Below, one piece after another: positions 13,782 to 40,109 of a stretch of DNA of 64,000 nt (within the stretch, counting starts at the first letter, position 1; the number at the start of each line of letters is the position of its first letter). A model generated the notes under the pieces. The model saw nothing but the letters and a program-made list of their open reading frames with translations. It was not told where the DNA came from and did not search any database. The DNA is from an uncultured Chitinophagaceae bacterium. GTDB taxonomy: Bacteria > Bacteroidota > Bacteroidia > Chitinophagales > CAIOSU01. A program made the position numbers and the translations under genes. The DNA is taken from assembly GCA_964518215.1 (NCBI GenBank), contig CAZFFP010000007.1:1121-65120 (forward strand), given 5' to 3'.

Positions 13782-13787
13782 TTATTT

Positions 13788-17015: not shown

Positions 17016-17025
17016 CAAGAAAACC

Positions 17026-18261: not shown

Positions 18262-19188
18262 ATGCCACACAGAAGAGTTCTCCATGACGATACGCTTGAA
18301 GCCCAATTTCAAAAAGACGGTTATGTGCGTGCGCCTTTCATAACGACCGAGGAGGTAGAGGCTCTAAAACAAAAGTTTTTTGATACCCTACCCCAAAGCG
18401 GTGGACAAATTACGGCTGATGAAACGGGCGTGGATGGCGGCAATCTGATTACCTACGACTTTACTTTTATTGATAAGAACCCCAACTACAAAAGGTTAGT
18501 GTTCGATATTATTACTGATTATTTCAAGCCGCATGTGGAGAGGCTTTTGGTAAACTATAAGCCAATTATTGCCAACTACATTCATAAGCGCCCTGAAGGA
18601 GGCGAAGTGCCCTTGCATCAAAATTGGGCTTTTGTAGATGAAAGGAAGTGCACTTCTGTTTCGATTTGGTGCCCGCTTGTGGACTCAACAGTTGACAATG
18701 GCACCCTTCAGGTAGTGCCCGGAAGTCACAAGCGTTTTGGTGAGTTTCGTGGCCCTATGGTCTCTTGGGAATTGGATAACATCAAGAAGGAATTAATCAA
18801 CAAATATCTTGTTCCGCTCGAAACCAAAGCCGGTGATTGTGTTATTTTAGATGACAGTATTATTCATTATTCTGCCATCAACAAAACTCCCGGGCTGCGC
18901 CTGACTATTCAGCTTATTTTAATTCCTTCTGAAGAGCCATCTATACACTATCACATGGATCCGCAACAACCCGAAATAATTCAGGTGCTTGAGGTCGACA
19001 AGGATTTTTACATGGAGTTCAACCCTTGGGCAAAACCAAAAAACGCGAAGCAGTTGCGCTCTTTCAGATTAAATCAACCGTTAATTAACGAGCAAGAATA
19101 TTTGCAAAGAATGAAATTGCCTAAGATTGATGAGCCACAGAAAAATTCACCGCGATTTTTTGAAAGATTAAAGGCGGTGTTTTCATAA
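18262..19188 (+). CDS. PhyH-family Fe(II)/2OG dioxygenase paralog, variant H-Q-N motif
   Basis: 308 aa. LHQNWAFVDE (CAT CAA AAT at 18616-18624), VVPGSH, IIHYSAIN. Same subfamily pattern as the other paralogs, but Asn replaces the facial-triad Asp. Confidence 0.8.
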   Translation: MPHRRVLHDDTLEAQFQKDGYVRAPFITTEEVEALKQKFFDTLPQSGGQITADETGVDGGNLITYDFTFIDKNPNYKRLVFDIITDYFKPHVERLLVNYKPIIANYIHKRPEGGEVPLHQNWAFVDERKCTSVSIWCPLVDSTVDNGTLQVVPGSHKRFGEFRGPMVSWELDNIKKELINKYLVPLETKAGDCVILDDSIIHYSAINKTPGLRLTIQLILIPSEEPSIHYHMDPQQPEIIQVLEVDKDFYMEFNPWAKPKNAKQLRSFRLNQPLINEQEYLQRMKLPKIDEPQKNSPRFFERLKAVFS

Positions 19189-19189
19189 A

Positions 19190-20023
19190 ATGGATATTGT
19201 CATCGAACCAAAACCGCTTAAAGTTATCACCCCCGATTCGCCCGGCATTGCCGAATATTGGCGAGAAATGGTGAAATATCGCTCTCTTATTGTTGTGTTT
19301 GCGCAACAGGAAATAAAAGCCATGTATGCACAAACATACTTTGGTTTATTATGGAGTGTTATTCGCCCATTGATTACTTTGGCAATTTTTTCTGTTATTT
19401 TCAATTACTTTCTAAAAGTACCCACCGAAAAACCTTATTACGTTTTTGCTTTTGCAGGAATGATTGCATGGAATTTTTTCTCTCTCATATCAAACAGTGC
19501 TTCAACTGCTATTCTTGCCAAGCAAAATCTTATTCGCAAAATGTATTTCCCAAAGCTTATTTTACCATTATCAAAAGTTTTGGTGGCAAGTGTAGATTTT
19601 GCCGTTTCATTAGTAATTATTTTTTCAATGATGGTGTATGAAGGGGGAATGTTTGGCATTCAAACATTATCGCTTCCATTTTTTGTTTTATTAAATGTGT
19701 TATGCGGGTTAGCCGTTGCTCTTTGGATGAATTCGCTCAACATCCGATTTCGCGATTTGCACCAAATTATTCCTGCTATTATCGGCATTGCCATTTGGGT
19801 AACTCCCGTTTTTTATCCCACAACTATTATTCCTGCGGGCTACGATTTTTTTGTTTATGCCAATCCGATGGCAGGAGTTATAAAAGGATTTCGCTTTGCA
19901 TTATTAGGGGAAGCTTTTCCTGAATGGCAATATTGGATTGCCATGGGAATAACTTCGCTGCTGGCAGTTGTTGGGGCATGGTATTTATCGCAAACCGAAG
20001 ATAAAATGGTGGATTATGCATAG
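19190..20023 (+). CDS. wzm: ABC-2 type polysaccharide/teichoic-acid-type export permease (Wzm/TagG-like)
   Basis: 277 aa, 6 predicted TM helices. The N-terminal YRSLIVVFAQQEIKAMYAQTYFGLLWSVIRPL is typical of ABC-2 permeases. Confidence 0.85.
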   Translation: MDIVIEPKPLKVITPDSPGIAEYWREMVKYRSLIVVFAQQEIKAMYAQTYFGLLWSVIRPLITLAIFSVIFNYFLKVPTEKPYYVFAFAGMIAWNFFSLISNSASTAILAKQNLIRKMYFPKLILPLSKVLVASVDFAVSLVIIFSMMVYEGGMFGIQTLSLPFFVLLNVLCGLAVALWMNSLNIRFRDLHQIIPAIIGIAIWVTPVFYPTTIIPAGYDFFVYANPMAGVIKGFRFALLGEAFPEWQYWIAMGITSLLAVVGAWYLSQTEDKMVDYA

Positions 20024-21953
20024 CCTCTACACCACATCTCGAATCTTTAGAAATGTCGGATTACAAAAACAATTTGAGCTGTACGGTTATGTTGTTGTGC
20101 CATTTCTAAGTGAAGGCGAAGTGAAAGCCCTGCGCGATTTTTTCTTTGAAAAACATCCGAACATTCCCGATGGTTTTTACAGCAGCAGTTTTAATACCGA
20201 TGACGCGCACAAGAAAAGTGTGAACCAAAAAATTGAAAGTGTGTTGAGCGGAAGGGTAGAGGAACATTTCAATTCAATTAAAAAACTCGGCAGTTGTTTT
20301 TTGAACAAGCAGCCGGGAGCGCAAAGCGAAATGCCCATTCATCAGGATTGGACGGTAGTTGATGAGCCAAACTTCGACAGCATAACTATATGGATTCCCT
20401 TGCAAGATGTAAACAAAACCAATGGAGCGATTCAGGTGATAGATGGCAGCCATCGCCTCACTAAAGCATTACGATCGCCTTCTTTGGAAGACCCTTTTAA
20501 AAATGTGCAAAGCGAAATGCGCAAAGATTTAAAGTTGTTGCCCATGAAAGCGGGAGAGGCATTTATTTTTTCACAGGCATTACTTCATGCTTCGCCACCA
20601 AATTTGAGCAACGAGCCACGCATTGCTGTTACTTATGGTTTAATAGATGCCCAGGCACAACTGATGTTTTATCATCATGAAGCAGGTAAGGTGGAGCAAT
20701 ACTTTGTGGACGAAAGTTTCTTTCAGCAATACAACACACAAATAGGGCAGCGACCAAATTTTGGTAGCGTGCAAAAAACTTTCGATTATCAACAGCACTT
20801 TGTTTCAGCTCTTGAATACCAAAAGATGAAGCAAAATTTTCAGCATATTAAAGCAGCGCAGATGTATAAAATGATTCCAATTTTTAAGGACGATAGCAAA
20901 CAGCAATTTTTTGAGAAAGAAGGCTATGCGGTTTTCCCTTTATTGAATGAAAGTGAGGTGGCTGATTTGAAGGCCTACTACGAAAACCTGAATCTGAAAG
21001 ATGAAAAGGGTTTTGGCTTTCATGTAAGTATGGACAACAGCGATAAAGATTTGTGTCGCAAAGTCAGAGAAAAAGTTTGGGGCGTTGCTTTGCCAAGATT
21101 AGGTGAGCACCTGAAAGATTTCAAGCCGTTTGTTTCGAGTTATGTGGTTAAAGAAATAAACCCTAAAGGAGTGGTGCCTGCACATCAGGATTGGAGTTTT
21201 GTAGATAGAGAAGAAGATGGTTATTCCTCGATTACTTGCTGGATTGCACTGGTGGATACCAATATGGATAATGGAGGTATGGGTGTGATTCGCGGCAGCC
21301 ATAAGTTTATGCAAAACCATCGACCATCGCCATCGCCACAATGCCCCGTGCCTTTGAGCGAACACATGTTCAGCATCTTTCCTTATCTGCACACAGTGGA
21401 TGTAAAAGCAGGCGAGGTGCTGATGTTTGACAACCGAACCTTCCATGCTTCGCCACCAAACACCTCTAATTTTTTACGATTAGCTGCAGGAGTTGGTGTA
21501 ACACAAAAAGATGCGCAGTTGGTGCACTATTATTTAAAGCCCGATGGTACTTTTAAAACTATGTTGCGCTATAATGTAGATGAAGATTTTTACCTGAAAT
21601 ATGAAAATGCAACTTTATCAAAAATGTACGATGAAGGCAAAGTGATTGAAGGCTATGGCGAGCCGGTGGAAGTGCCTTATGAATACAATAAGTACACAAC
21701 AGATGAGTTGGTAGAAATTATCAAAGCAGCGGGTAATGAATACAATATTCCCATGACAGAAAAATTGGCGAAGTTGTTTGGTTACTTAAATGCGGAGCAA
21801 AAGAAAGAGGAAGCAAAAGAAGGAGTATTTGAAACGCCACAACCAATAGAAGTGCAGGAAGAATGGAAGTGGGTGGACGATAGACCCTTTTTTGCAAAAT
21901 ACACTCCTTTAAATATTGCACGAGAAATTAAAAAGCGATTAGTGGGCGCATAA
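20016..21953 (+). CDS. tandem di-domain PhyH-family Fe(II)/2OG dioxygenase
   Basis: I use the ATG at 20016 (MHSLYTTS), an 8-nt overlap with wzm. N-domain: PIHQDWTVVDE, VIDGSH, LLHASPPN. C-domain: PAHQDWSFVDRE, VIRGSH, TFHASPPN. Confidence 0.85.
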   Translation: MHSLYTTSRIFRNVGLQKQFELYGYVVVPFLSEGEVKALRDFFFEKHPNIPDGFYSSSFNTDDAHKKSVNQKIESVLSGRVEEHFNSIKKLGSCFLNKQPGAQSEMPIHQDWTVVDEPNFDSITIWIPLQDVNKTNGAIQVIDGSHRLTKALRSPSLEDPFKNVQSEMRKDLKLLPMKAGEAFIFSQALLHASPPNLSNEPRIAVTYGLIDAQAQLMFYHHEAGKVEQYFVDESFFQQYNTQIGQRPNFGSVQKTFDYQQHFVSALEYQKMKQNFQHIKAAQMYKMIPIFKDDSKQQFFEKEGYAVFPLLNESEVADLKAYYENLNLKDEKGFGFHVSMDNSDKDLCRKVREKVWGVALPRLGEHLKDFKPFVSSYVVKEINPKGVVPAHQDWSFVDREEDGYSSITCWIALVDTNMDNGGMGVIRGSHKFMQNHRPSPSPQCPVPLSEHMFSIFPYLHTVDVKAGEVLMFDNRTFHASPPNTSNFLRLAAGVGVTQKDAQLVHYYLKPDGTFKTMLRYNVDEDFYLKYENATLSKMYDEGKVIEGYGEPVEVPYEYNKYTTDELVEIIKAAGNEYNIPMTEKLAKLFGYLNAEQKKEEAKEGVFETPQPIEVQEEWKWVDDRPFFAKYTPLNIAREIKKRLVGA

Positions 21954-21965
21954 ATCAAAAAAATC

Positions 21966-22934
21966 ATGTTCCAGTTTCCAGATAAAATGTTGCAGGTGTT
22001 TCGCGATGAAAAACACCAAAGTGATTTTGAGAAAAATGGCTTTGTGATTCTTCCTTTTTATACTCCTGAAGAAATCAAAGAATTGGAAGCCACCTATCAT
22101 CGCTTGCATCCGCAAGATGAAAAAGGATTTTTCCCCAGCACCTTTTCAAAAGATAAAAACTATCGTCATGAAGCCGATGAAGAAATTAAACGCATAGGCA
22201 ATCGTAGCATTGAAATGTATTGTCAGGACATTAAAGTGGTGTGCGGCTCATTTATTGTAAAAAGCCCCGGCCCTGAAAGCGGCATGTGTGTGCATCAGGA
22301 TATGAGCCTGATTGATGAAAGTCGCTTTACCGGCATCAACATTTGGGTGCCGTTGATAGACCTAACTATTGAAAATGGTGCATTGTTTGTATTGCCCGGC
22401 AGCCACAGAATTTTCCCTACGTATCGTGGCAGCAGCATCCCCGAATTTTTTGCACCGGTGATGAATGATATGATTGACTACCTGCAACCTGTTTTGATAA
22501 AAGCAGGCGAAGCAGTGTTTTTCGACCAAAGCATTATTCACTTTTCTCCCCCTAACTACTCTGATAAAATCAGGATTGTAACCAACACTTATTTTACACA
22601 CAAAACAACTGAATACAGAACTTACTATTGGAACAAAGAGCAACATGGGAGCAATAAATTAGAAGCCTTTGCCCAGGACGATGATTTCATGACCAACTTT
22701 GAGCAGTTTGGCGAGAACATTCGCGATAGACCAAAAGTAGGCAAGTCGCTTGGGCTGGTGGAATATGACTTTCCAACAATTAATAAGGCATTTTTAGATA
22801 GTCGCTTTCAGCGCACCAATGCCAGAAAGTTAATTGAAGATGCCAAGCCTGAATTGTTAAATGTTCAAGCTCCGGTTCAGGCCGAAATTAAAAGCAAAAG
22901 CATTTTTCAACGCTTAAAAGAATTGGTGAGTTAA
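21966..22934 (+). CDS. PhyH-family Fe(II)/2OG dioxygenase paralog
   Basis: 322 aa. CVHQDMSLIDE, VLPGSH, IIHFSPPN. Confidence 0.85.
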   Translation: MFQFPDKMLQVFRDEKHQSDFEKNGFVILPFYTPEEIKELEATYHRLHPQDEKGFFPSTFSKDKNYRHEADEEIKRIGNRSIEMYCQDIKVVCGSFIVKSPGPESGMCVHQDMSLIDESRFTGINIWVPLIDLTIENGALFVLPGSHRIFPTYRGSSIPEFFAPVMNDMIDYLQPVLIKAGEAVFFDQSIIHFSPPNYSDKIRIVTNTYFTHKTTEYRTYYWNKEQHGSNKLEAFAQDDDFMTNFEQFGENIRDRPKVGKSLGLVEYDFPTINKAFLDSRFQRTNARKLIEDAKPELLNVQAPVQAEIKSKSIFQRLKELVS

Positions 22935-23870
22935 ATGGGCAAGCGCATATTTAAAAGCGATGAGCACCAGCAACTGTTTGAGAAGCAAGGCTTCATTGTA
23001 CTGCCTTTTATTACTACAGATGAAGTGGCACAATTAGAAAAATTGTTTGATGAGTTGCATCCTCAAATTAATGAAGGGGGCTTTTTTAGTGGAAGCTACA
23101 GTAGTGATATTGAATACAAGAAAAAAGCTAGTGAAGAGATTGTCAAAGTTTTTAGTAGAGCTTACAATGAACTATTCATCAATTACACTCCCTTTGGTGC
23201 TGCGTTTCTTTACAAGGTGCCGGGTGTAAACAGCGAGCTTGCTGCGCACCAAGATTGGACGATAGTAGATGAACAGAAAAATGTTGCGCTCAACTGTTGG
23301 GTGCCGCTTTGTGATGTTGCAAAAGAGAACGGAGCATTGAGTATTTTGCCGGGTAGTCATTACAATAACCTGAATGTAGTTCGCGCACCCACGCTTCCGT
23401 TTTTTTTTAGTGGTGATGATGATATGGTATTGAAAGAATTGATACCCATGGAAGTAAATGCGGGAACGGCTGTGATTCTTAATCAAAGCGTGATTCATTA
23501 CTCACCGCCCAACAACAGCAACAAAATTCGCAAGGCAATTACGGCCGGACTGAAGAGCGAAGGCGCACAAATGTATTTTCACTACAAAGTTCCCGATAAA
23601 GATGAACTGGAAGTTTTTGAAATGGATGACGACTTTCTTATCAGTTTCAAAGACTTTATGAATGACATCGGAAAGCGACCCTATCTTGGTAAAAGCATTG
23701 GCTTAATTCCTTACAGGCTACCTCAACTGCACGGGACTGATTTGTACGAAAAGCTGAAAGAAATGAAAACTAAAGCAGGATTTGAGATGAGCAGGAATGA
23801 AAAAGTTGAAGTGGACCATAAGAGTGGCGGAAAACTTCGTAAATTGATTTCACGCCTGTTTGGCAATTGA
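22935..23870 (+). CDS. PhyH-family Fe(II)/2OG dioxygenase paralog
   Basis: 311 aa. AAHQDWTIVDE, ILPGSH, VIHYSPPN. The start abuts the previous stop. Confidence 0.85.
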   Translation: MGKRIFKSDEHQQLFEKQGFIVLPFITTDEVAQLEKLFDELHPQINEGGFFSGSYSSDIEYKKKASEEIVKVFSRAYNELFINYTPFGAAFLYKVPGVNSELAAHQDWTIVDEQKNVALNCWVPLCDVAKENGALSILPGSHYNNLNVVRAPTLPFFFSGDDDMVLKELIPMEVNAGTAVILNQSVIHYSPPNNSNKIRKAITAGLKSEGAQMYFHYKVPDKDELEVFEMDDDFLISFKDFMNDIGKRPYLGKSIGLIPYRLPQLHGTDLYEKLKEMKTKAGFEMSRNEKVEVDHKSGGKLRKLISRLFGN

Positions 23871-25514
23871 CTCTATTTCTTCATTAATTGCTATTCTTTC
23901 GGCTTCAAACTCTATAAAGCCTTGGTGAAAATCTGCACTCGAATCATAAATTTTTGTTGCAGCGCCCGCATTAATACCGGCTTTAAATAACAAAAATTTA
24001 TACACATGATAGATGTTGTGTAGAGCATATGCACTAAACTCCGGGTTCCTTTGCTTAAATCCGGTAATTACATCAGCCATAATTGACATTGGCCTGATGA
24101 GTATTTTTGGTATTTTTTCAACTTTTTCTAGGGTAAGGTTTTCCCTCCATTTTTCCGGAAGCGCAGGCAAAATTCTAAATATTACCTCATATGCTTTGTA
24201 TTTATTCATCAATTCTATGTCTTTCACATTTTCTGTATTCCTGAAAAAATAAAAGTCTTCTCCTTCATTGATTTTTCGTGCCTGTTCGGCTGTTATTACT
24301 CCTCTTTCTTCTGCATCTTTCATCATGTCTGTGCCGGGTAAATAACAAGTCCAGAATGTTTGAATTCTTTTAGGATGATGTGTTGCATAAAGTTTTCTTG
24401 CATTTTCCTGAGCTATTAATGGCTCATCAGGCAAGCCAAACATGTGGTCAACTTTTGCATGCATTCCATATTTATACATTAATTCTAAGGCTTCACTAAT
24501 GTCGTCAGATTTTTCATAACGCATTAAATTGTCTTTTTTGAAGCCCTCGTCCATGCTTTGCACGCCCATTTGAATCCACTCGCATCCGGATTCTTTCAGC
24601 CAACCGGCAACCTCATTACTCATGTATTTTGGATGGGTAAGAATATTGTATGGAATATTAATTTCCTTTTTATACTTATAGGCAAATTCTTGTAGCCATT
24701 TTTTGCTTGTAGCAAACACATCGTCCTGAAAATCAATTTTATGAATCTTATATCTTCTTTTTGCAATTTTCAATTCGGCAATAACATGATCTACACTTCT
24801 TAATCGGACATATTTTCCACTCTTTTCTTCGGGTAATTTTGCCACAAAATTGTTGAAGCAGAAGGTGCATCTGTATGGACAGCCCCTTGATGCCATGGTT
24901 AAATACAAATCGCCTAACCGCACATGCTCTTCCCAAATGGTTTTATCAAAAAAGGGCAAGGAATCTAAATCTTGTATGAAGCCCTTTTGAAGCCCTGTAA
25001 TTACTTTTCCTTCTTTGTTTTTAAATCTTGTATTGTATATAGGGTCTGTATATTTTCCTTCTCTAACCGTATTAATGATTTGTGGAAATGCTACATCGCC
25101 CTCGCCCACTACAACGAAATCTACCTCCGGACGAACGATTACTAAACTTGGAACAGCCGAAGGATGAACACCGCCAAAAACAGTTTTAATATTTGGATTT
25201 ATTTCTTTTGCCGCTCGTGCCACTTCAAGCATCCATTGATAAGTTGATGTTAATGCAGAGAATGCCAATATATCGGGCTGTTGGTCTTTGATAGCCTGAA
25301 TGACTTTATGTGTATCATCAAAATATGGAGCAATTGATGGAAATTCTAAATTAAAACGATCGTGGAAGAGAGATGCACTAAAAGCCATTCCAACACTATG
25401 TCCTTCCCGTTTTGCAATGGCACTTATTTGACTGATTCCGAGCTGTTCTGTTCCTAAACCTACAAATGTGATTTTCATTTCTCTGAAAGGGTTTATATCG
25501 TCTAAATTATACAC
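23850..25514 (-). CDS. B12-binding domain radical SAM enzyme (class B)
   Basis: 554 aa. N-terminal Rossmann-like B12-binding segment (KITFVGLGTEQLGISQISAIAKREGHSV...ILAFSALTS) and radical SAM cluster motif SRGCPYRCTFC. Confidence 0.85.
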   Translation of the reverse strand: MYNLDDINPFREMKITFVGLGTEQLGISQISAIAKREGHSVGMAFSASLFHDRFNLEFPSIAPYFDDTHKVIQAIKDQQPDILAFSALTSTYQWMLEVARAAKEINPNIKTVFGGVHPSAVPSLVIVRPEVDFVVVGEGDVAFPQIINTVREGKYTDPIYNTRFKNKEGKVITGLQKGFIQDLDSLPFFDKTIWEEHVRLGDLYLTMASRGCPYRCTFCFNNFVAKLPEEKSGKYVRLRSVDHVIAELKIAKRRYKIHKIDFQDDVFATSKKWLQEFAYKYKKEINIPYNILTHPKYMSNEVAGWLKESGCEWIQMGVQSMDEGFKKDNLMRYEKSDDISEALELMYKYGMHAKVDHMFGLPDEPLIAQENARKLYATHHPKRIQTFWTCYLPGTDMMKDAEERGVITAEQARKINEGEDFYFFRNTENVKDIELMNKYKAYEVIFRILPALPEKWRENLTLEKVEKIPKILIRPMSIMADVITGFKQRNPEFSAYALHNIYHVYKFLLFKAGINAGAATKIYDSSADFHQGFIEFEAERIAINEEIESIAKQA

Positions 25515-25730: not shown

Positions 25731-26633
25731 ATGAACAGCAGTTTACAAAATGTTCCGGACGCCACCATCAGTGACGAAAATTTTCTCCATTTCCCACATG
25801 TAAAAGTTGAAGAGTTGTCTGCTTACCCGGATGGTCTTAGCGACATACAAACCGGAAAAACCCATGGGTTTCTAATAAGGGGAGTTTTTAGCGCTGATGA
25901 AGCAGATAAGCTTGTTGAAGAGTTTTACAAAGTTGATGACGACAGATTTGAACACAATAAAAACGGAAGAAATATTCCTAAGCCCTTTGCCTCTGTATCG
26001 TTAAACAGTGAGCCGGGAGGAGAGATAGACCCCTATTTTGCTGCTGCGGGAGCCTTTTGGGACAATTTCCCGGAAAAATTTGGTATTGATTTCAGCGACA
26101 GGGTAAAAAAAGTCTTTGAAAAAATAAGCGGAGGCCGTCCGGTGGGCGTTCCGCAGGAACCAAACAAAAACATCAGTTTCAGTCCGGCTCAAATGCGAGA
26201 AATGTATGCAGGAAAAGGGGGCATTTATGTTCATTGCGGTAAATATTTTAGAGATAGGTTTTCCAGTTTTTATACTTATCTTAAAGACGTTTCCATTGTT
26301 GATGAGCAAATTAGCTACTTTGTTATGCTGCAACCGCCCGACAGTGGTGGTGAACTTACGGTTTACGATATTTTGTACAACAATGTGAAGCAAAAGAACG
26401 AAGAGTGGGACAACAAAATTGTAATTGCCGATGATGGAACCGCCATAGACTTGGAAGACCCGAAAGGCGTGAGAAGAAGAAAATTGCGTCCGGGCAAAGG
26501 AGATATGATTGTTTTTGATGGCGGCAATATCTGGCACAGAGTAGAAGATCCGGAAGGCTCTAAAAACAGAGTTACTGCCGGGGGCTTTATGACTTTCTCG
26601 CACGATAACAGCAAGGTGTATTTCTGGGGTTGA
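25731..26633 (+). CDS. WelO5-like Fe(II)/2OG enzyme with H-x-G motif (candidate aliphatic halogenase)
   Basis: 300 aa. IYVHCGKYF: His168-Cys169-Gly170, encoded by CAT TGC GGT at 26232-26240. Also ISYFVMLQPPDSGGELTVYD and PGKGDMIVFDGGNIWHRVEDPEGSKNRVTAGGFMTFSHDNSKVYFWG. From memory this follows the WelO5/AmbO5 layout (H164-x-G166, H259, C-terminal ...GGF-x-x-FS.....IYYWS). Confidence 0.6.
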   Translation: MNSSLQNVPDATISDENFLHFPHVKVEELSAYPDGLSDIQTGKTHGFLIRGVFSADEADKLVEEFYKVDDDRFEHNKNGRNIPKPFASVSLNSEPGGEIDPYFAAAGAFWDNFPEKFGIDFSDRVKKVFEKISGGRPVGVPQEPNKNISFSPAQMREMYAGKGGIYVHCGKYFRDRFSSFYTYLKDVSIVDEQISYFVMLQPPDSGGELTVYDILYNNVKQKNEEWDNKIVIADDGTAIDLEDPKGVRRRKLRPGKGDMIVFDGGNIWHRVEDPEGSKNRVTAGGFMTFSHDNSKVYFWG

Positions 26634-26647
26634 AAAACAGCTTATTA

Positions 26648-27487
26648 ATGCAGACAAACTTGAATTTTATTGATGAAAAACTTCAGAAGGAATATAACGA
26701 TAGGGGTTATTTTATTACACCTCTGCTAGACGATTCTCAAATAAGCAAGCTGCAAGATGTTTTTTATTCCTGTCTAGATGTAAATAAGCTGCCAACGGTC
26801 TATGATACAGTAGCCGAGATTCCTGTTGAGCAGGTATTGCAAATCAGCAAAAAGATAAATGACATTTGTAAAGGTTCTTTCGATTTAATTGTAGAAAATT
26901 ATAAAATAGCCGCATCTATATTTATTTCGAAAAAACCGGGTAATGACGGCTTCAATGGATATCATATTGATGCAACCATGACCCATGAGAAGTATAATAC
27001 TGTCGCTATTTGGATTCCGCTTTGCGATGTTGATGAGAAGGTGGGCAGAATGTGTTTGCTTGAAAACAGTCATTGTTTTTTACCCAGATACAATATTCCT
27101 TCTATGCCTAATGCCTATAAAGATGTCCAGAGTTTTGCATCAAAACATGTGAAGTGTTTTAACATGAAGAAAGGAGAGGCATTATTTTTTGAAGGAAGCA
27201 TGTTGCATGGCACCGAGTTAAATTCCTCCGAATCAATACGCATTGCCGCGGTTATTAAACTTATTGATATTCATGCGCCAAAAATTACCGCTTACTACCA
27301 TGAGCAGGCGCCTGAAGGAGAAAAATTGGCGCTGTATGAACACAATGACGATTTTTTTCTTCCGCAAGCATTTAAGTCATCATTGCCCCCCGAAGATAGC
27401 AGTTTTGTTGGATACGTTCCTTCAATGCCCAAAATATTTACTCAGAGCGAAATAGAGCATTTGCTTGAGAATAGATGCACAAATTGA
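26648..27487 (+). CDS. PhyH-family Fe(II)/2OG dioxygenase, divergent paralog
   Basis: I prefer the ATG at 26648 (MQTNLNFIDEKLQKEYNDRGYFITPL) over the TTG at 26630. NGYHIDATMTHE, LLENSH, MLHGTELN. Confidence 0.75.
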   Translation: MQTNLNFIDEKLQKEYNDRGYFITPLLDDSQISKLQDVFYSCLDVNKLPTVYDTVAEIPVEQVLQISKKINDICKGSFDLIVENYKIAASIFISKKPGNDGFNGYHIDATMTHEKYNTVAIWIPLCDVDEKVGRMCLLENSHCFLPRYNIPSMPNAYKDVQSFASKHVKCFNMKKGEALFFEGSMLHGTELNSSESIRIAAVIKLIDIHAPKITAYYHEQAPEGEKLALYEHNDDFFLPQAFKSSLPPEDSSFVGYVPSMPKIFTQSEIEHLLENRCTN

Positions 27488-27537: not shown

Positions 27538-28959
27538 ATGTCTGAAAAAAATATTATTCTTATAGACCTCCCCACCTTTCCTAAAGGTATTGTTTCCTTA
27601 TCCATACCAATAATTGCTGCCTGTTTTAAAAAATATTTTGAAGTAAAAGCGTTTGACCTGAATATTGACAGCTTTGATGCCACTCAATATGTTGACGACA
27701 ACACGCTGATGGTGGGAATGAAAGTTTCTTCACAAAATGCTTCCATAGCAACGGAACTGACGCAAATGCTTAAGCGCAAATTCCCCTCACTTAAAATTGT
27801 TTGGGGCGGGGAGTATCCCAGTTTATTGCCGGAGGAGTGTTTAAAACATGCTCACTCTGTTGTTGCGGGTTTATTGGAGCCGGTGTCCGATGAACTGTCT
27901 GCCGACTTATTGTCGGGAAACCTTAAAATGAAATATGTCGGGAAAAATGAAAATGTTCCTGAAATGATGCCGGTGCCCGACTTTAGTGTGTTGCCGCCTT
28001 TTCGCAAATATCTTTCATTCATGGGGCTGCCATTAGAAACCTCCAGAGGCTGCACGGAAAATTGTATGTTTTGCATGGTGTTGGTAATGCAGAAAAAAAA
28101 TTACTACCTAAAACCTGTCGAACAATTAAGCAAAGAGATAAAATTATATGACTGCAAGTTTATCAATATTGTTGACTACAATTTTGGGGTTAGCAAAGAA
28201 CATGTTATCAACGTGTCGCGCATCATAAAATCATCCGGTGCTTTGGGCTGGATGGCCGAAATGTGCATTGAGCTGTTGGACGATGATGAATTGCTGCAAG
28301 AAATGAGCAGAAGCCGCTGTCGAATGATATATTGCGGCCTGGAAAGTATAGAAGAAGAAACGCTTAGTTCCTTTAACAAAGACCGAACAAATCATGTTGA
28401 AAATTACGAACGCATTATACGAAAGGCTCAATCGTACGGAATTCAGATTGCTGCAGGGTTAATTTTGGGCGCAGCAAACACCACTCCGCAAACTTTCATC
28501 AAGACATTCGATTTTTTTCAGAAAATGGGAATTATATACACCAAACTAACATTTCTAACCTATAATCCCGGAACCAGAGTGCAGGAATATATGCGCAAAA
28601 AGGGTATTTATCTCACGGATAAACATGAAGAGTATGACGGGGTTCGCTTTTCTTTTCTGTCGGAAGGAGTGGAGAAAGGTGTAGTCTTAAATGGCTTTGA
28701 ATATTATGTGCGCGAATTTTACAGCATAACAAATATCTTGAAAAGAGCTTTAAAAACCAATGTGGATTTACTGGGAAAAGCAGAATTTTTTCTTTTTTCA
28801 TATTGTTATGCAGATGTATATCGAAAGTCAATCGTAAACAATTATCTGCGATTTCCGGAAAATTTCGACAAACTGTTAATAAGCAAACATCAGCCGTCAT
28901 TCACGCTTATTTTAATGCAAAAGCTTCTTTTTATTGTAAGGGTTCTTCGAAAAAAATAA
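27538..28959 (+). CDS. B12-binding domain radical SAM enzyme (class B)
   Basis: 473 aa. N-terminal B12-like segment (NIILIDLPTFPKGIVSLSIPIIAAC...) and cluster motif SRGCTENCMFC. Confidence 0.75.
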   Translation: MSEKNIILIDLPTFPKGIVSLSIPIIAACFKKYFEVKAFDLNIDSFDATQYVDDNTLMVGMKVSSQNASIATELTQMLKRKFPSLKIVWGGEYPSLLPEECLKHAHSVVAGLLEPVSDELSADLLSGNLKMKYVGKNENVPEMMPVPDFSVLPPFRKYLSFMGLPLETSRGCTENCMFCMVLVMQKKNYYLKPVEQLSKEIKLYDCKFINIVDYNFGVSKEHVINVSRIIKSSGALGWMAEMCIELLDDDELLQEMSRSRCRMIYCGLESIEEETLSSFNKDRTNHVENYERIIRKAQSYGIQIAAGLILGAANTTPQTFIKTFDFFQKMGIIYTKLTFLTYNPGTRVQEYMRKKGIYLTDKHEEYDGVRFSFLSEGVEKGVVLNGFEYYVREFYSITNILKRALKTNVDLLGKAEFFLFSYCYADVYRKSIVNNYLRFPENFDKLLISKHQPSFTLILMQKLLFIVRVLRKK

Positions 28960-28977: not shown

Positions 28978-30177
28978 TCAGGGCAAAATCTCAGACAGAA
29001 TTATTGTTTTTTGAGCCATGAGGTCTCCGGTAGAATCATCTGCCCAATATCTCGATTTATTTAAGGCGGCAACCGTTAATGTTAAAGGGGTTTTGAATTT
29101 TTTAGGAAGCGTAATTAAATGTTTTACAGTATCGGCAAAAGGCTCAAATTTAATACCGTTGATGCCCGGAAGCTGATAGGAGTTGCCAAAATGAGCCACC
29201 ATATCTAACGCGTGCTCTTCTCGTCTGTTTAGACGAATAGTATCGTAAAGAATAGTTCTTCCATTGTTATCAGAAATTGTGATTAAAGTAACAAAATCTC
29301 TGCACTTGCCAATTTTATGAGGCATGCTGTTGTTTGTCCAATCTATAATAACCTTGTCCCCATAGAGGGTGGCATTAAATCCGTTTAATATCATATTATT
29401 GTAGGCAAGATTAATTTTTTCTTTAGGGTCCTTTCTCCAGAATAAATAATGAGTTCCTTTGCCATTTTTATATTCTTGGTGGCAACTGTTGCAGGTTTGT
29501 TTTTCACTTACCAACCCTAATCTCATTAATTCATTAGACTCATTATAATTGTCTTTGTGACAGGCAGAACAAAAAATATCTGAACTTAAAAACATAGATG
29601 CCTTTGGAAAGCAGTAATCTATTAATTTTCTGTCTTCAGGTTTTTCAACAAATGAAGCAGAGGCTATAATGTTGTTTGGAGTATAATGACAAGTGATACA
29701 GTCTATTCCTGTTATCCAGGTTGAGGAATCTATCCTTGCTTGGTTGTTGGCGTAATAAGACGGGTGCGATTCGCTATTGATGTTTTTGAGGTCTGTGATA
29801 AATTCTAGTCCTTTATAATTAGATTCAAACAGGTTTTGAGTTGAATGGCAAGAAACACATTGCGAGCTTATTGATTCATTCACAAAGTGAGTGTAAGTCG
29901 TTTCTTTGTAATCGGTACGGTTAACCTCCTCTTGATGATGCATCAGAGAAAGAAATGCATTTGCATGAGGACCTATTTTTTCGTTTTCATGTGCAGTATT
30001 ATGACAAGAAATGCATTTTTCTAATTTTTCTGCTCTGCTCAGTTCTGCATAAAGCTCGCGAGATTTTTCAGTTTTGTTTGTGAAACTGCAACTACGTAGC
30101 GATACGATTGCCAATAAACATAAGGCAATAACGTAAACAAGTGTAGTGCGCTTAAATAAAAAACCCCCATTATTCAT
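28978..30177 (-). CDS. membrane-anchored pentahaem c-type cytochrome
   Basis: 399 aa. N-terminal anchor LVYVIALCLLAIVSL. Five CxxCH motifs: CISCH, CVSCH, CITCH, CSACH, CNSCH. Confidence 0.8.
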   Translation of the reverse strand: MNNGGFLFKRTTLVYVIALCLLAIVSLRSCSFTNKTEKSRELYAELSRAEKLEKCISCHNTAHENEKIGPHANAFLSLMHHQEEVNRTDYKETTYTHFVNESISSQCVSCHSTQNLFESNYKGLEFITDLKNINSESHPSYYANNQARIDSSTWITGIDCITCHYTPNNIIASASFVEKPEDRKLIDYCFPKASMFLSSDIFCSACHKDNYNESNELMRLGLVSEKQTCNSCHQEYKNGKGTHYLFWRKDPKEKINLAYNNMILNGFNATLYGDKVIIDWTNNSMPHKIGKCRDFVTLITISDNNGRTILYDTIRLNRREEHALDMVAHFGNSYQLPGINGIKFEPFADTVKHLITLPKKFKTPLTLTVAALNKSRYWADDSTGDLMAQKTIILSEILP

Positions 30178-30382: not shown

Positions 30383-32095
30383 TTACTCATTAAAGTGCAA
30401 TTCATATCTAAAAATCTGAAAATCTCCGTTTCGCCCGTCTTGAAGAACAATTTCTTCTACCGGACGAAATTCAACATCTATTTTATGAACAATATTTAAA
30501 AACGGCTCCAATAAAGCCATTCGGTTTTCTGTAGAATAGTAAATTATATTTTCGGATTCCGCTCTCATAAATTCAAAAAACTCTTTTACACTATGTGCGT
30601 TACACTGACAGGTTTCGTTCAAAAACCTTTCGTAATCGGGTAAATAGGCAACTTGAGCCATGTCATAAAAAATCACATTTTCTCTCATTTGAAAAAAACG
30701 AAAAACAAAATCGTCTAAAACTTCACGGCTCGATGTATCGAAGAAAATAAATTTCCCGTTTTGTTTAGAAAATATTTTTTCGGTGGTTGCAGCACGTTCA
30801 CGAATCATTCTCTTATTAATGCCGATTTCTTTTTTCAGGAACCAAACATTCTGAAGTAATAAAGCGCCCAAGCCGAAAAGCAGTATCAATTTTATCTTTT
30901 GAAAATATTCATAATGCTCAATCATAAACAACAAGTTGCCAACTATTGCGAGCTGAATAATCGGCAAAAAATGCCATTGCTCCATTTTTAAGGAGTATGC
31001 CAAAGAGCTTATGATTATCCATATTGAAACATTGAACAGCATAGTTTTAAGAAGAAAAAAATTGTTTTTTAATCTGAAAAACAAGAATAGCAGCCCCGTC
31101 AATGTGAACAAATAGATGGTTAATAGTGGCATGTTTCTTTGCATTGTAGGAAAAGCCGTGTAAGATATTTGCTTATAAATATCCTTCGGTCTTGCAGAAA
31201 ACATTTCTTTTTCAAAGGCAATTTTTTCGTCTGATATTTTCTTAAACAAATCATAATTGAAAGTGGCGCTATCAATTAAAAAAGAAGCTCTAGACATTTT
31301 GCGAATAAGAGCATCAACACTATCGGTTGCAATAACAGGTGGAGAGTTGTGCGAATCGGTTACATAAAACACCATCGGCTCTACATCTCTAAAGAAAGGA
31401 TGTGTATTCATAACATAGTAGAACCTTACAAAAAATAAAATAATGGCTAATGCAGGCAGCCAGTATAATTTCAAAAACCGAAACAAATTGCGGTCGGCAA
31501 TTAAAACAAAAACCGATGCAATCAATGTGCCGCCTAAGCCCGACTCAATACGCATGGAGTAGCCCCAAAAAACAAAAAATGTAAGAAGCAAATATCCGCA
31601 CCATCGGATGATGGGCGTTTTAATTTGATAGTATCCTTTCCAAATGGCTAAAAGCGAAGTTGAGGTGAGCAGCATGCTAATGCCGGTAATTGAAAATTCG
31701 ATAAATGACACGCCAAAAATTAAAAGCATAGTAGCCGCCCAAACAATAAAAATTTTCTTAAAAGAAATGCTTGAGAGGTTTTTATTGGCTAATAACAGGA
31801 AAATCACCAAAGCCTGTATTATAACCCATGCCGAAAAAAGCAATAGTGCAGTCCACGAAAAAGAGGGGAGGTAATAATGAAGAAATGCCTGTACATGAGT
31901 CATGGGACTCATGCCCATGTGGTAATTTTCGGTTATAAACACGCCCGATACGCTGCTGCTAACCATCATCGCCATGAATGACTCATAAAAACCCCAAATA
32001 GGGTCAATTATAATGCAGGCCATTATGGAAAGAACTGTGGTAGTGAAAAATATTTTGCCTAGGCAAACCACTTCTTCTTTGTGTACATTATTCAT
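30383..32095 (-). CDS. polytopic membrane protein with soluble C-terminal domain (paralog of 37570-39246), family unknown
   Basis: 570 aa with 10 or more hydrophobic helices. The C-terminal segment IIYYSTENRMALLEPFLNIVHKIDVEFRP matches IRLYATENRLALIKAYFEIVYSYNFEYEP in the paralog. Confidence 0.7.
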   Translation of the reverse strand: MNNVHKEEVVCLGKIFFTTTVLSIMACIIIDPIWGFYESFMAMMVSSSVSGVFITENYHMGMSPMTHVQAFLHYYLPSFSWTALLLFSAWVIIQALVIFLLLANKNLSSISFKKIFIVWAATMLLIFGVSFIEFSITGISMLLTSTSLLAIWKGYYQIKTPIIRWCGYLLLTFFVFWGYSMRIESGLGGTLIASVFVLIADRNLFRFLKLYWLPALAIILFFVRFYYVMNTHPFFRDVEPMVFYVTDSHNSPPVIATDSVDALIRKMSRASFLIDSATFNYDLFKKISDEKIAFEKEMFSARPKDIYKQISYTAFPTMQRNMPLLTIYLFTLTGLLFLFFRLKNNFFLLKTMLFNVSIWIIISSLAYSLKMEQWHFLPIIQLAIVGNLLFMIEHYEYFQKIKLILLFGLGALLLQNVWFLKKEIGINKRMIRERAATTEKIFSKQNGKFIFFDTSSREVLDDFVFRFFQMRENVIFYDMAQVAYLPDYERFLNETCQCNAHSVKEFFEFMRAESENIIYYSTENRMALLEPFLNIVHKIDVEFRPVEEIVLQDGRNGDFQIFRYELHFNE

Positions 32096-32937
32096 AAACT
32101 ATTTTCAAGACTGCTTTTGGCTATTATATCTTTTGCTGTTGGTAATTCCGGAAGGACTATTTTGGGGTGTCTGAGAATAGCTGTATCGGGGATATTTACG
32201 TTTGGCAATTGCTCTAATAATTTGTTAAAGTCATTAGCCGCCAGCTCATGCCCGTTCACCTCTCCGTTATTATTGTCGTAATAAATTATGGGCGACTCAA
32301 TATGCTTAACGATAAAAGCCAGAATGGGTCTGCTTTCATTGCTTGTATTTGGAAATGAGCCGTGAAAAGCCGCTTGATGAAAGGCTAAGCAACTACCCGC
32401 TTTCAACGCTATGTTTTCTTTTAAATTATCAGGAATTTTTTCGAATTCAATTCGGCTCGAATCAAGAGAAGCAGATCTGTAAGTTTTGAAATACCAATGT
32501 GAATGGGGGATAATGCTCATGCCGCCATTTGCATTATTTGAATCATATAGCGGAATCCAGCAGGTCGCAAAAGCATGTTTGGTTTCATCTGTATAACTCC
32601 AGTCTTGATGATAAACAAAAGTATCAAATGTTTTGGCGGGTTTAGTAATGAATAAGCACCCTAAGATTTCAAATGAATTAAAATGACCGGAAAGCTTTGC
32701 TTTCAACTTTTCTAAAATTAATTCAAACGGCTTCTTGCTTTCAGACAAACTTAAAGCCGACACACTGTAGTTGACTCCGTAAAACTGTCGTTGTTCCAGT
32801 CGCTTTTCTGCTCCATTTAAATCGGCATAAATTTCTCTCACAAAATCTATTTCTGAAGTTTCGAGAAATGGAAATGTAGTAAATCCTTTATTGATGAATT
32901 CACTTTCGGCTTGTTTATTTTTAAAGGGTGTTTGCAT
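32092..32937 (-). CDS. PhyH-family Fe(II)/2OG dioxygenase paralog
   Basis: 281 aa. VYHQDWSYTDE, IIPHSH, AAFHGSFPN. 4-nt overlap with the downstream membrane protein gene. Confidence 0.85.
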   Translation of the reverse strand: MQTPFKNKQAESEFINKGFTTFPFLETSEIDFVREIYADLNGAEKRLEQRQFYGVNYSVSALSLSESKKPFELILEKLKAKLSGHFNSFEILGCLFITKPAKTFDTFVYHQDWSYTDETKHAFATCWIPLYDSNNANGGMSIIPHSHWYFKTYRSASLDSSRIEFEKIPDNLKENIALKAGSCLAFHQAAFHGSFPNTSNESRPILAFIVKHIESPIIYYDNNNGEVNGHELAANDFNKLLEQLPNVNIPDTAILRHPKIVLPELPTAKDIIAKSSLENSL

Positions 32938-33121: not shown

Positions 33122-33883
33122 TTAAACGCCAATAATTTTTTTGTATCTGGCAGCAGCCCAACTAAGTGGTATTTGCCAACCTCTCGACCACCAAAAGTTT
33201 ATGGCAATGGAATCTTCTTCGTTTACTACATAATGCCACCACATAGATGGAATGAACAAGGTGTCGCCCGCATTTATTTCTGCCACAAAGGGTTTTGCAT
33301 GGTGCAGTTTTGGAAATTTTTTGTAATCTGGTTTTTCCAGCTTTATTTTAGAAAAGTTGGGGTGTTTAGAAAAAATACTGTTGGGGTAAAGGTGGGTTTT
33401 GGGACTGAATAGTATAATTTTTTTTCTGCCTTTCACCAATACAAGTATATTCTCTGGGATGTCTCTGTGAAGGGCGGTGGATGAATTTTTTGGCGCAATA
33501 AATATTCTTGAATTTAACACCTTGCCGTTGGCACAATACTCAGGCACCCAATAATCTTTTTTTATTTTTTTGTTAAAAAAATCTACAGGACTGGCAACTG
33601 CCTTTTTTTTGTCGATTTCGCGTGCCGGTAAAGTTTTATAAGAATGAAGGTCAGAAGAGCCGTTTACGATGTCCATCATTCCGATTTCAGAGCCGGCAAA
33701 ATTTTCTGTAAAATATTCTGCAGACCATGCTTGCATCGCGGGCCAGTGGTCAACCAGATGTTTGATAATAATGGGGCGACTTTTTTTGACAAATGCTTCG
33801 AAAAATTCAGACTTTGAAATGGCGCTAATACTGTTTATATAGTCGGGAGCCTGCATAGAAAGAGTTTCTCTATCAACCAACAT
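33122..33883 (-). CDS. JmjC / cupin-8 type Fe(II)/2OG oxygenase
   Basis: LHRDIPENILVLVKGRKKIILFSP (H-x-D) and GDTLFIPSMWWHYVVNEEDSIAINFWW (distal His). The start is uncertain. The track gives 33955 (83-nt overlap with the upstream gene). In-frame ATGs also occur at 33883 and 33856. Confidence 0.75.
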   Translation of the reverse strand: MLVDRETLSMQAPDYINSISAISKSEFFEAFVKKSRPIIIKHLVDHWPAMQAWSAEYFTENFAGSEIGMMDIVNGSSDLHSYKTLPAREIDKKKAVASPVDFFNKKIKKDYWVPEYCANGKVLNSRIFIAPKNSSTALHRDIPENILVLVKGRKKIILFSPKTHLYPNSIFSKHPNFSKIKLEKPDYKKFPKLHHAKPFVAEINAGDTLFIPSMWWHYVVNEEDSIAINFWWSRGWQIPLSWAAARYKKIIGV

Positions 33884-34883
33884 TTTTAATAGCGTTGGCA
33901 ACTGTAAGTCCTGGTTTTTGAAATAAAAGATTGAATTCGAGCATGGGACCAACAATGCATTTTGTACAGGGTGTTTCTTTGTTAAATGCTTCAGACCAAT
34001 CTTCTTTCAAGAGGTTTATGCCTTTGACTTTTTCTTTAGTGTAAGCACACGGAAAAGCATTTCCTTCAGTATCAACAAATAAATATCCTCTTCCGGCAGC
34101 ACATTTTTCATCGGGGTCATATAGTGCCGAAACCGCATAATTTTCCCATTGGCTGATATATTTGAGATATGCCAGCGAACTTGCTATAGGAGCGCCTTCT
34201 TGTTTTTTTTCAATTAGATGTGTCCATATTTTTTTTAGTGCATCATTGCCGGAGTTGTGTTGTGGGACTTTATTGGTTACAATTTCAGTATCATAACATT
34301 CCGGCTGAAAATGCACATTAATGTTTTCTTCTTTTGCCAAATTGAGCAGATAGCTGATGTCGTTCATTGATTGTTGATTGACTACGCAAATAGCGGTTAC
34401 CTTTTTCCCCGACTCAACAATATGCCTGATCGCTTTTAGTATTTTTTCGAAACTCTGTTTGCCTCGGTTTTTAATATGGGTTTCGGGCGTGCCATCTAGG
34501 CTGGTAAAGAAATAATCTATTTCCCCAAGAATATTTTTAAATTTTTCATATAGCAGCAGGTTTGAGTTGAGGCTGACAAAAAAATCATGTTGCTTGCCCA
34601 TTTTTATTATTTCTAAAATATCTTTTCTAAAAAGAGGTTCTCCGCCTAATAATCCTAACCTTTTAACGCCAAGTTTTTTTAATCTTTTGAACAAAATATC
34701 TATCTCGCTTAATGATAGTTCAGGAGATTTCATGCTCGGAAAATTACAATAGCTACAATGTATATTGCAATTGTTAGACACAGCAAAAGAGGCAGAGAAA
34801 GGCTTCGGTTTTCCATTAAACGAATACGAAAGATAACTTTGGCTGAATGCCATTCCCATCTGCGCTATTTCATAAACTTTCAT
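33873..34883 (-). CDS. radical SAM enzyme with C-terminal SPASM/twitch-like Cys cluster
   Basis: 336 aa. CNIHCSYC (C-x3-C-x2-C). C-terminal Cys residues: EKCAAGRGYLFVDTEGNAFPCAY and ETPCTKCIVGP. Confidence 0.85.
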   Translation of the reverse strand: MKVYEIAQMGMAFSQSYLSYSFNGKPKPFSASFAVSNNCNIHCSYCNFPSMKSPELSLSEIDILFKRLKKLGVKRLGLLGGEPLFRKDILEIIKMGKQHDFFVSLNSNLLLYEKFKNILGEIDYFFTSLDGTPETHIKNRGKQSFEKILKAIRHIVESGKKVTAICVVNQQSMNDISYLLNLAKEENINVHFQPECYDTEIVTNKVPQHNSGNDALKKIWTHLIEKKQEGAPIASSLAYLKYISQWENYAVSALYDPDEKCAAGRGYLFVDTEGNAFPCAYTKEKVKGINLLKEDWSEAFNKETPCTKCIVGPMLEFNLLFQKPGLTVANAIKNVG

Positions 34884-35670: not shown

Positions 35671-35676
35671 TATTTG

Positions 35677-36414: not shown

Positions 36415-36543
36415 CTATTTTTCATTTCAACTTTAAAATACACAATAAAATTAAGGACAGTTCTAAAAATTGTTCTTTTTATTTCCTCATTTCTTTCTTT
36501 TTATAAGGAGCGGGTGTGGTTTACAGAATTTTTTGAACGCCCA

Positions 36544-37560: not shown

Positions 37561-37569
37561 GATAAAGAT

Positions 37570-39246: not shown

Positions 39247-39258
39247 AATAAAAAAACA

Positions 39259-40038: not shown

Positions 40039-40109
40039 ACCAAAATATGTGATTGTCTAAAGTTATTAACTAATTATCAAAAAAACAGAGGGGACCTTAG
40101 CCGTACCCT

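Follow-up and report, generated by a model that had tools for sequence, protein, structure and literature searches.

A probable WelO5-family Fe(II)/2-oxoglutarate halogenase in Bacteroidota gene clusters for Wzm/Wzt-type glycan export

An open reading frame (ORF) at 25731-26633 on the plus strand of a 64-kb stretch of contig CAZFFP010000007.1 (hereafter the window, meaning the whole 64,000 nucleotides analysed) encodes a protein that is probably a Fe(II)/2-oxoglutarate (2OG) radical halogenase of the WelO5 family, judging from its sequence and predicted fold. Across related loci, the WelO5-type gene is physically linked in a conserved manner to a Wzm/Wzt ABC exporter bearing a carbohydrate-binding domain (CBD), to arrays of PhyH dioxygenase genes and to glycan assembly genes. 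The enzyme plainly belongs to a family already known; the novelty lies in a separate clade whose conserved gene context had not been described before and points to a new class of substrate. Taken together, the observations on balance favour a free-standing Fe(II)/2OG halogenase that would act in the cytoplasm on an envelope glycan destined for Wzm/Wzt export, the substrate part of this reading being drawn from the gene neighbourhood.

The ORF begins with ATG and encodes 300 amino acids (aa), and the public protein collection holds one entry identical to its product. The first-pass annotation of this DNA, made from the letters alone, had proposed a WelO5-like halogenase with a His168-x-Gly170 motif, and the raw sequence is as it described: CAT (26232-26234), TGC (26235-26237) and GGT (26238-26240) encode His168, Cys169 and Gly170 within GGIYVHCGKYF. 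The sequence blocks quoted in support of the WelO5 likeness are likewise all present, namely FLIRGVF (residues 47-53), ISYF (194-197) and GGELTVYD (206-213), the stretch PGKGDMIVFDGGNIWHRV (254-271, which includes His269 of WHRV), KNRVTAGGF (278-286, which includes Arg280) and the C-terminal SKVYFWG (294-300). The Pfam profile PF22814, 'Carrier-protein-independent halogenase WelO5', matched the protein with E = 1.3e-64 and 218.9 bits (cut-off 27) over profile positions 3-277 of 277; no NCBIfam model was found for it. Significant sequence matches in the PDB were confined to WelO5 (5iqs, 5j4r), WelO5* (8acv, 8aut) and Wi-WelO15 (6gem), with E values of 1e-32 to 6e-31 across query residues 9-299. 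No chain of SyrB2, BesD, HalD or AdaV appeared among these matches even at E <= 10.

The predicted structure agrees with these assignments. An AlphaFold2 model built from 42 homologues reached a mean pLDDT of 88.8 and a pTM of 0.88, and in a Foldseek comparison of the model with the PDB every one of the best 17 matches belonged to the WelO5 family (E 1e-21 to 9e-25, TM-score 0.73-0.85), with its double-stranded beta-helix fold, the superposition on WelO5 itself giving TM-scores of 0.79-0.85. The next fold after the WelO5 family was SadA (3w21; E 4e-7, TM-score 0.44-0.54), and HalD appeared at rank 38 (TM-score 0.41-0.47). Membership in the SyrB2/CurA-type or BesD-type families was considered and rejected, as no such chain was recovered at E <= 10 and HalD is a remote structural match only. 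There is no evident N-terminal signal peptide or transmembrane segment in the protein, which is therefore presumably cytoplasmic. A second WelO5-family copy was not found by tblastn in the window, and scans for sigma-70 promoters and terminators around the gene returned counts at the level of shuffled sequence and were uninformative, which is the usual outcome in Bacteroidota.

Sequence alignment places the V-H-C-G of the query (giyVHCGkyF) over the V-H-V-G of WelO5 (eiaVHVGndF), with His168, the predicted proximal Fe ligand, and Gly170 exactly on WelO5 His164 and Gly166; like this alignment, all the computational checks proposed at first pass turned out in favour of the halogenase interpretation. 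The further equivalences, taken on 5iqs, are S195 with S189, H269 with H259 and R280 with R270; native WelO5 numbering corresponds to the 5iqs chain number minus 25, as confirmed by the name of PDB entry 5iqu, 'G166D variant'. The codons of the three further active-site residues are as follows.

26313-26315, plus strand: Ser195 (AGC), equivalent of the WelO5 second-sphere Ser189
26535-26537, plus strand: His269, predicted distal Fe ligand, equivalent of WelO5 His259
26568-26570, plus strand: Arg280, predicted to bind the C5 carboxylate of 2OG, equivalent of WelO5 Arg270

All five residues (H168, G170, S195, H269 and R280) are invariant across the 42 homologues, which are 31-69% identical to the query. 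In a motif tally of 181 sequences of at least 240 aa, drawn from two protein searches, the column of position 170 held Gly in 148 + 1 sequences, Glu in 23, Asp in four, Ala in two, His in two and Phe in one; among 231 family members, HxG/A was found in 192 and HxD/E in 33 at this same column, and the HxG/A share came to 82-83% in the two tabulated family samples. Because those family members that have an Asp or Glu ligand carry it in this column, position 170 can be taken as the carboxylate ligand site, in line with the claim that Gly stands where a carboxylate would be expected. The first-pass annotation had also named D190 or E192 as nearby acidic residues that might complete a normal facial triad: E192 is present, the other acidic residue is D191 and residue 190 is Val. 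E192 aligns on Asp186 of WelO5, itself not a ligand, and the carboxylate ligands of the family fall at position 170, which together argue against completion of the triad by a neighbouring Asp or Glu. The invariance of Gly170 down to 31% identity argues for selection on the Gly state, so that Gly at this position is, as far as the alignments can indicate, a maintained state, and the predicted halogenase-type active-site signature is present in full. In WelO5, the second-sphere Ser189 reportedly favours halogenation (work attributed to Mitchell et al. 2016), and the G166D variant, which was crystallised as PDB 5iqu, is said to lose chlorination.

Paralogues of the WelO5 family with HxD/E lie beside HxG copies in five related loci (L001, L007, L009, L013 and L049), and variants at the position-170 motif also occur elsewhere in the family.

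L001, 10837-11727: paralogue with HCE
L007, 12611-13507: paralogue with HCD
L009, 14395-15291: paralogue with HAD
L013, 8787-9638: paralogue with HHD
L013, 12671-13567: paralogue with HAD
L049 (closest relative), 13895-14710: second paralogue, with LHRDGE
L041 and L042: family members with HCD
L013_9884, L023 and L028: family members with HCA, i.e. Ala instead

A rough neighbour-joining tree of the 231 family members requires at least 21 switches between the G/A and D/E states. By this sequence-based reckoning the WelO5 family may represent a natural hydroxylase-halogenase switch series, and the occurrence of HxG and HxD/E paralogues within the same clusters offers a natural system for that switch.

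The window has a G+C content of 39%, and its MnmG gene (6917-8782) encodes a protein 73-75% identical to MnmG of metagenome-assembled genomes (MAGs) labelled Chitinophagales bacterium. Relatives of the gene were sought in one genome per GTDB species, which yielded 48 loci, almost all in Bacteroidota MAGs (Crocinitomicaceae, Fluviicola, Dokdonia, Chitinophagales, Saprospiraceae and Pelobium), with a few in Acidimicrobiia, Myxococcota, Acidobacteriota and Neomarinimicrobiota. The Bacteroidota origin suggested at first pass is consistent with both observations. Two of the loci are genuine cyanobacterial WelO5 loci: L038, from Westiellopsis, and L039, from Pelatocladus. When 1.84 billion representative proteins were searched with a profile, 978 family members scored E < 1e-3, and 345, counted as clusters at 50% identity, scored E < 1e-30; the WelO5 family is small. 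The query gene is assigned to a largely Bacteroidota clade that is distinct from cyanobacterial WelO5.

ORFs were called in the 48 related loci and then clustered, with a WelO5-family ORF called in 44. Besides the WelO5 family itself, the recurring families were PhyH, with 207 genes in 41 loci and up to 11 in a single locus, an ABC ATPase of approximately 400 aa in 33 loci, an ABC-2 permease in 23 and, in 22, family f4, a CMAS-like S-adenosylmethionine (SAM) methyltransferase with a membrane anchor; glycosyltransferase family 2 (GT2), GNAT, DegT aminotransferase, HTTM membrane protein, UbiA-like and epimerase genes also recurred. Where a WelO5-family ORF was called, PhyH genes were present in 38/44 loci and the ABC ATPase in 32/44, the WelO5-family gene lying directly beside the ATPase gene in 24 of the 44 and no more than two genes away in 29. 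The typical gene order, as seen in L002, L020, L027 and L048, runs from GT2 through wzm, five PhyH genes, the methyltransferase and the ABC ATPase to the WelO5-type gene, followed by two PhyH genes, HTTM, a glycosyltransferase family 1 (GT1) gene and an epimerase. In the nearest relatives, L049-L052 (63-68% identical), the pair formed by the WelO5-type gene and its downstream PhyH is retained and is followed by the ATPase; these loci hold orthologues of the B12-binding radical SAM (B12-rSAM) enzymes, GDSL protein, cytochrome and 570-aa protein of the window, in a different order. The envelope locus inferred at first pass can accordingly be sharpened to a cluster for Wzm/Wzt glycan export in which 2OG oxygenase genes are densely represented. 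The gene families flanking cyanobacterial WelO5 (f14 and f15) were confined to L038 and L039, and this, together with an identity to WelO5 of 26-30%, led to the rejection of the query as a strict WelO5 orthologue in a hapalindole-type indole-isonitrile pathway.

One further relative, L053 (Sphingobacteriaceae bacterium GCA_002319075.1, NVQB01000001.1, 883143-904126), was the only one found on a multi-megabase contig. Its WelO5-type gene is accompanied by beta-ketoacyl synthase III (KAS III), an 80-aa ORF resembling acyl carrier protein (ACP), DegT, GNAT, PMT_2-TPR, UbiA and Wzt genes, a content which suggests, tentatively, that the target is an N-acyl substituent.

In the window, the WelO5-type gene lies among the following features, listed by coordinate.

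683-1744, minus strand: tyrosine integrase
At 10654, plus strand: AsnB-like protein
12516-18135, plus strand: glycan assembly and export genes, from GT1 to the WecA-like gene, including the next four entries
At 12516, plus strand: GT1
At 13788, plus strand: Wza-like Poly_export protein
At 14580, plus strand: Wzc-like protein
At 16984, plus strand: WecA-like initiating phosphoglycosyltransferase
18262-19188, plus strand: PhyH paralogue with H-Q-N in place of H-x-D
19190-20023, plus strand: ABC-2 permease, Wzm/KpsM-like (matches below curated cut-offs)
19968-21953, plus strand: tandem double-PhyH protein of 661 aa, both domains with H-Q-D
21966-22934 and 22935-23870, plus strand: single PhyH genes, both with H-Q-D
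23850-25514, minus strand: B12-rSAM enzyme, divergent from the WelO5-type gene
25731-26633, plus strand: WelO5-family Fe(II)/2OG enzyme of predicted halogenase type
26630-27487, plus strand: PhyH-type 2OG dioxygenase with an H-I-D triad, its start overlapping the WelO5-type stop codon
27538-28959, plus strand: B12-rSAM enzyme, closing the plus-strand run
28978-30177, minus strand: multihaem cytochrome c
30383-32937, minus strand: a 570-aa protein without family match (30383), then PhyH (32092)
At 33122, minus strand: Cupin_8/JmjC
At 33873, minus strand: radical SAM (rSAM) enzyme
At 34870, minus strand: UbiA
35677-36414, minus strand: LpxO-like Asp/Arg beta-hydroxylase
At 36544, minus strand: LPG_synthase_TM
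At 37570, minus strand: 558-aa protein without family match
39259-40038, minus strand: LpxO-like Asp/Arg beta-hydroxylase
At 40110, minus strand: GT2
At 40828, minus strand: B12-rSAM enzyme, the third in the window
At 42218, minus strand: GDSL
43558-44772, plus strand: Wzt-type ABC ATPase (TagH/Wzt-like) of 404 aa with a CBD-like C-terminal domain
44798-45640, plus strand: PhyH dioxygenase directly 3' of wzt
45774-47189, plus strand: PMT_2 (ArnT-like)
52903-59289, minus strand: 2128-aa protein with Ig/PKD-like repeats

The PhyH gene at 26630 is the conserved downstream partner of the WelO5-type gene, being 53-56% identical to its counterparts at the same position in L049-L052, and the orthologue of the 570-aa protein stands directly upstream of the WelO5-type gene in L049. 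All PhyH paralogues of the window carry H-x-D, with the exception of 18262 (H-Q-N). Searches of the PDB gave no match for the partner PhyH at 26630 and, for the PhyH at 22935, weak matches to PHYHD1, MysH, EvdO2 and SnoK only, which are insufficient to name a substrate.

Compared with full-length Aquifex aeolicus Wzt (7k2t, 8dku), the window ATPase gave an E value of 6e-53, both proteins being of 404 aa, and the alignment extended to residue 313, beyond the nucleotide-binding domain. Its C-terminal 180 aa had no match in a single-sequence PDB search. A profile of this 180-aa region, built from 28 cluster ATPases, found only the CBD of Aquifex Wzt in the PDB (8dky/6o14, E 6e-5 to 8e-5; 8dku/7k2t, E 2e-4), and the ATPase of L053 had a faint precomputed Pfam Wzt_C match. 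The three components of the Wzm/Wzt cap-recognition pathway, i.e. a Wzm permease, a Wzt nucleotide-binding domain and a C-terminal CBD, were thus all found. According to a passage of PMC9445017, O-antigen secretion often needs a chemically modified elongating terminus, which is recognised via the CBD of Wzt.

By the mechanism proposed here, His168 and His269 would ligate Fe(II) and Arg280 would anchor 2OG, with Gly170 leaving free the coordination site that a carboxylate fills in hydroxylases, such that a halide could bind there. As extrapolated from WelO5 and SyrB2, activation of O2 would generate a Cl-Fe(IV)=O species, which would take hydrogen from an unactivated sp3 carbon before chlorine rebounds to the carbon radical, and Ser195 would help to steer the reaction towards halogenation. 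The genomic context suggests a substrate other than hapalindole; the likeliest candidate is a lipid-linked envelope glycan or its precursor, modified at a sugar residue or at an N-acyl or alkyl substituent. Such a glycan would be assembled in the cytoplasm and oxidised further by the PhyH dioxygenases of the cluster, with methylation by the B12-rSAM enzymes as an additional step in this window, and would then be exported by a Wzm/Wzt ABC transporter with a cap-recognising CBD on its ATPase. Since the WelO5-type gene adjoins wzt in many of the related loci, the terminal cap is an attractive, unproven target. A broader and more tentative proposal is that surface glycans both halogenated and heavily hydroxylated are produced by Bacteroidota and by a few other phyla; a residue or substituent of an undecaprenyl diphosphate-linked polymer would be chlorinated in the cytoplasm, possibly at a non-reducing-end cap that Wzt reads as an export signal.

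Several observations weigh against a glycan-tailoring halogenase. In the window, wzm (19190) and wzt (43558) are 6-18 kb from the WelO5-type gene and not adjacent to it. The CBD match is weak (E of approximately 1e-4) and was found by profile, not by single sequence. The CMAS-like lipid methyltransferase, the LpxO-like hydroxylases and, in some loci, KAS III and ACP genes also fit a lipid or acyl substrate, and Ser195 is conserved in the HxD/E paralogues too and so does not discriminate halogenase from hydroxylase types.

The alternative that survives best, although it is considered improbable, is that of a genuine halogenase which acts on a small diffusible metabolite or on a lipid or acyl chain, the latter being for example an N-acyl group bound to ACP or to a sugar, an acyl chain of lipid A or of an aminolipid, or a polyprenyl chain; the ABC transporter would then export that lipid or metabolite. 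Branched acyl-CoA is the classical substrate type of PhyH enzymes, a CMAS-like methyltransferase with a membrane anchor (f4) is a conserved neighbour, the window contains two LpxO-like hydroxylases, UbiA and LPG_synthase_TM, and besides the KAS III and ACP-like ORF of L053 there are ACP-like ORFs in L012, L018 and L026. However, the ATPase is Wzt-like with a CBD-like C-terminus, the conserved neighbourhood is dominated by glycosyltransferases, DegT, epimerase and the WecA-like enzyme, and ACP and KAS III genes occur in a minority of loci: no ACP or peptidyl carrier protein (PCP) gene was found among the window ORFs scanned, nor was KAS III found in the window, and ACP-like ORFs and KAS III were found in few of the related loci.

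Cryptic halogenation, in which the chloride is later displaced to form a ring, an ether or an unsaturation such that the final product is free of halogen, appears unlikely. Precedents are CmaB/CmaC in coronatine, CurA in curacin and the Bes pathways. The precedent among Fe/2OG halogenases (BesD, summarised in PMC8407142) and the many tailoring enzymes that always surround the gene, including the tightly coupled PhyH partner, speak for it, but there is no recognisable CmaC-, ECH- or BesC/BesB-type partner beside the gene, and the data fit retained and lost chlorine alike.

Slightly less probable still is that the enzyme is not a halogenase in spite of its HxG motif, being instead a hydroxylase, desaturase or other oxygenase, or inactive; the Fe coordination sphere would then be filled by water or by a group of the substrate. 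The presence of HxD/E, HxH, HxF and other variants in the family is indicative of plastic chemistry, and Ser195 is not confined to HxG members. Opposed to this are the invariance of Gly170 in the distant homologues described above and the WelO5 G166D variant (5iqu), with its reputed loss of chlorination. Further, the sole feature common to all characterised Fe/2OG halogenases is a Gly or Ala residue in place of the carboxylate (PMC13489965).

A proteusin-like cluster for ribosomally synthesised and post-translationally modified peptides (RiPPs), in which the halogenase would act on a ribosomal peptide tailored by B12-rSAM enzymes, rSAM enzymes and hydroxylases, is very improbable despite the three B12-rSAM genes, single rSAM gene, JmjC/Cupin_8, Asp/Arg beta-hydroxylases, AsnB-like protein and ABC transporter of the window, and was rejected: no widely shared small ORF that could serve as a precursor was found across the 53 loci searched, most of the related loci lack rSAM genes, the constant elements being PhyH, Wzm/Wzt and glycosyltransferases, and the ATPase is of the Wzt type.

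The halogenase with the glycan-tailoring role favoured here can be compared with several known systems. With WelO5, AmbO5, Wi-WelO15 and WelO5* (PDB 5iqs, 5iqt, 6gem, 8acv) it shares the same Pfam family over the full length, the same fold, the 2-His plus Gly site, the 2OG-binding Arg and the second-sphere Ser, as well as a single-domain architecture of approximately 290-300 aa with no carrier-protein domain. It differs from them in its low identity (26-30%), in its origin from Bacteroidota, probably Chitinophagales, in lacking hapalindole pathway neighbours and lying instead in a cluster for glycan export with a PhyH array, and in the region aligned to the substrate lid (approximately residues 213-250), which is divergent and rich in charged residues. 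This glycan-export and PhyH-array context implies that the substrate must differ from that of WelO5. To our knowledge, every WelO5-family enzyme characterised so far has a cyanobacterial indole alkaloid as the molecule that it chlorinates; these enzymes are prized biocatalysts with a narrow substrate scope. Some family members carry the JGI automatic annotation 'hapalindole-type alkaloid chlorinase'.

The carrier-protein-dependent halogenases SyrB2, CmaB, BarB and CurA-Hal would by analogy perform the same chemistry (2-His plus Ala/Gly, Cl-Fe(IV)=O), yet have no detectable sequence similarity to the query at E <= 10; their PhyH-like fold is that of the PhyH paralogues of the locus, which are almost all of the HxD hydroxylase type. 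A second halogenase candidate, of the SyrB2 fold, may lie in a like cluster at L043 (11796-12716, minus strand), where a PhyH-type paralogue reads H-Q-G. The free-standing halogenases BesD/HalA-D, AdaV/AdeV, DAH, AspX and BtnX act on amino acids, nucleotides, alkaloids and biotin, and we know of none in a polysaccharide-export cluster. These enzymes resemble the query in being free-standing with a 2His-1Gly/Ala site (PMC13489965), but are unrelated to it in sequence, HalD being a remote structural match. SadA, an N-substituted L-amino acid dioxygenase (3w20/3w21) and the closest non-WelO5 structure to the model, is unlike the query an HxD hydroxylase and is 13-14% identical to it; its D157G variant gains chlorination (PMC8407142). 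For the transporter, the cluster ATPase has the same length as that of Aquifex aeolicus Wzm/Wzt (7k2t, 8dku, 6o14) and a similar nucleotide-binding domain, but a weak similarity in the CBD. We know of no Wzm/Wzt locus in which wzm and wzt are separated or flanked by dioxygenase arrays or by a halogenase gene.

Within the library searched in full text, WelO5 and Bacteroidetes were not linked in any paper, and those papers that mention halogenase, O-antigen and chlorinated together are unrelated. A 2026 structure-mining atlas gives 946 predicted radical halogenases, with WelO5 among six known families (PMC13489965); its text makes no mention of Bacteroidota or polysaccharide contexts. Activity on a glycan or a glycan-borne substituent would constitute a new substrate class for radical halogenases, and the glycan-tailoring proposal, if true, would mean that a bacterial envelope polysaccharide is halogenated and that an Fe/2OG halogenase has a glycan as its substrate, each for the first time. 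It would also reveal a hitherto hidden bacterial surface chemistry that would matter for organohalogen cycling and for recognition by phages and the immune system, and would supply new scaffolds for the late-stage C-H halogenation of polar molecules.

Additional features of the locus were noted in the same data. The G+C content falls to 0.34-0.37 across 28-48 kb of the window, compared with 0.40-0.46 in the flanks, which fits a variable and possibly horizontally exchanged surface-glycan locus; no tRNA genes were found in the window. The minus-strand tailoring run at 33122-42216, together with PMT_2, resembles a polyprenyl-phosphate-sugar/ArnT-like module, and the 2128-aa Ig/PKD-repeat protein is probably a surface adhesin, separate from the halogenase finding. 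The B12-rSAM gene at 27538-28959 (plus strand) and the multihaem cytochrome gene at 28978-30177 (minus strand) are convergent, and this pair recurs in related loci, adjacent in L016, L017 and L026 and non-adjacent in L049/L050. Double-PhyH homologues of the protein encoded at 19968-21953 also occur in relatives, e.g. a 566-aa protein in L049. Finally, the 'VPLHQNWAF' motif of the PhyH at 18262 recurs in 13 related loci, each of which has a single orthologue with it (14/188 of the PhyH genes examined), and this PhyH type appears to have a conserved 2-His plus Asn site.

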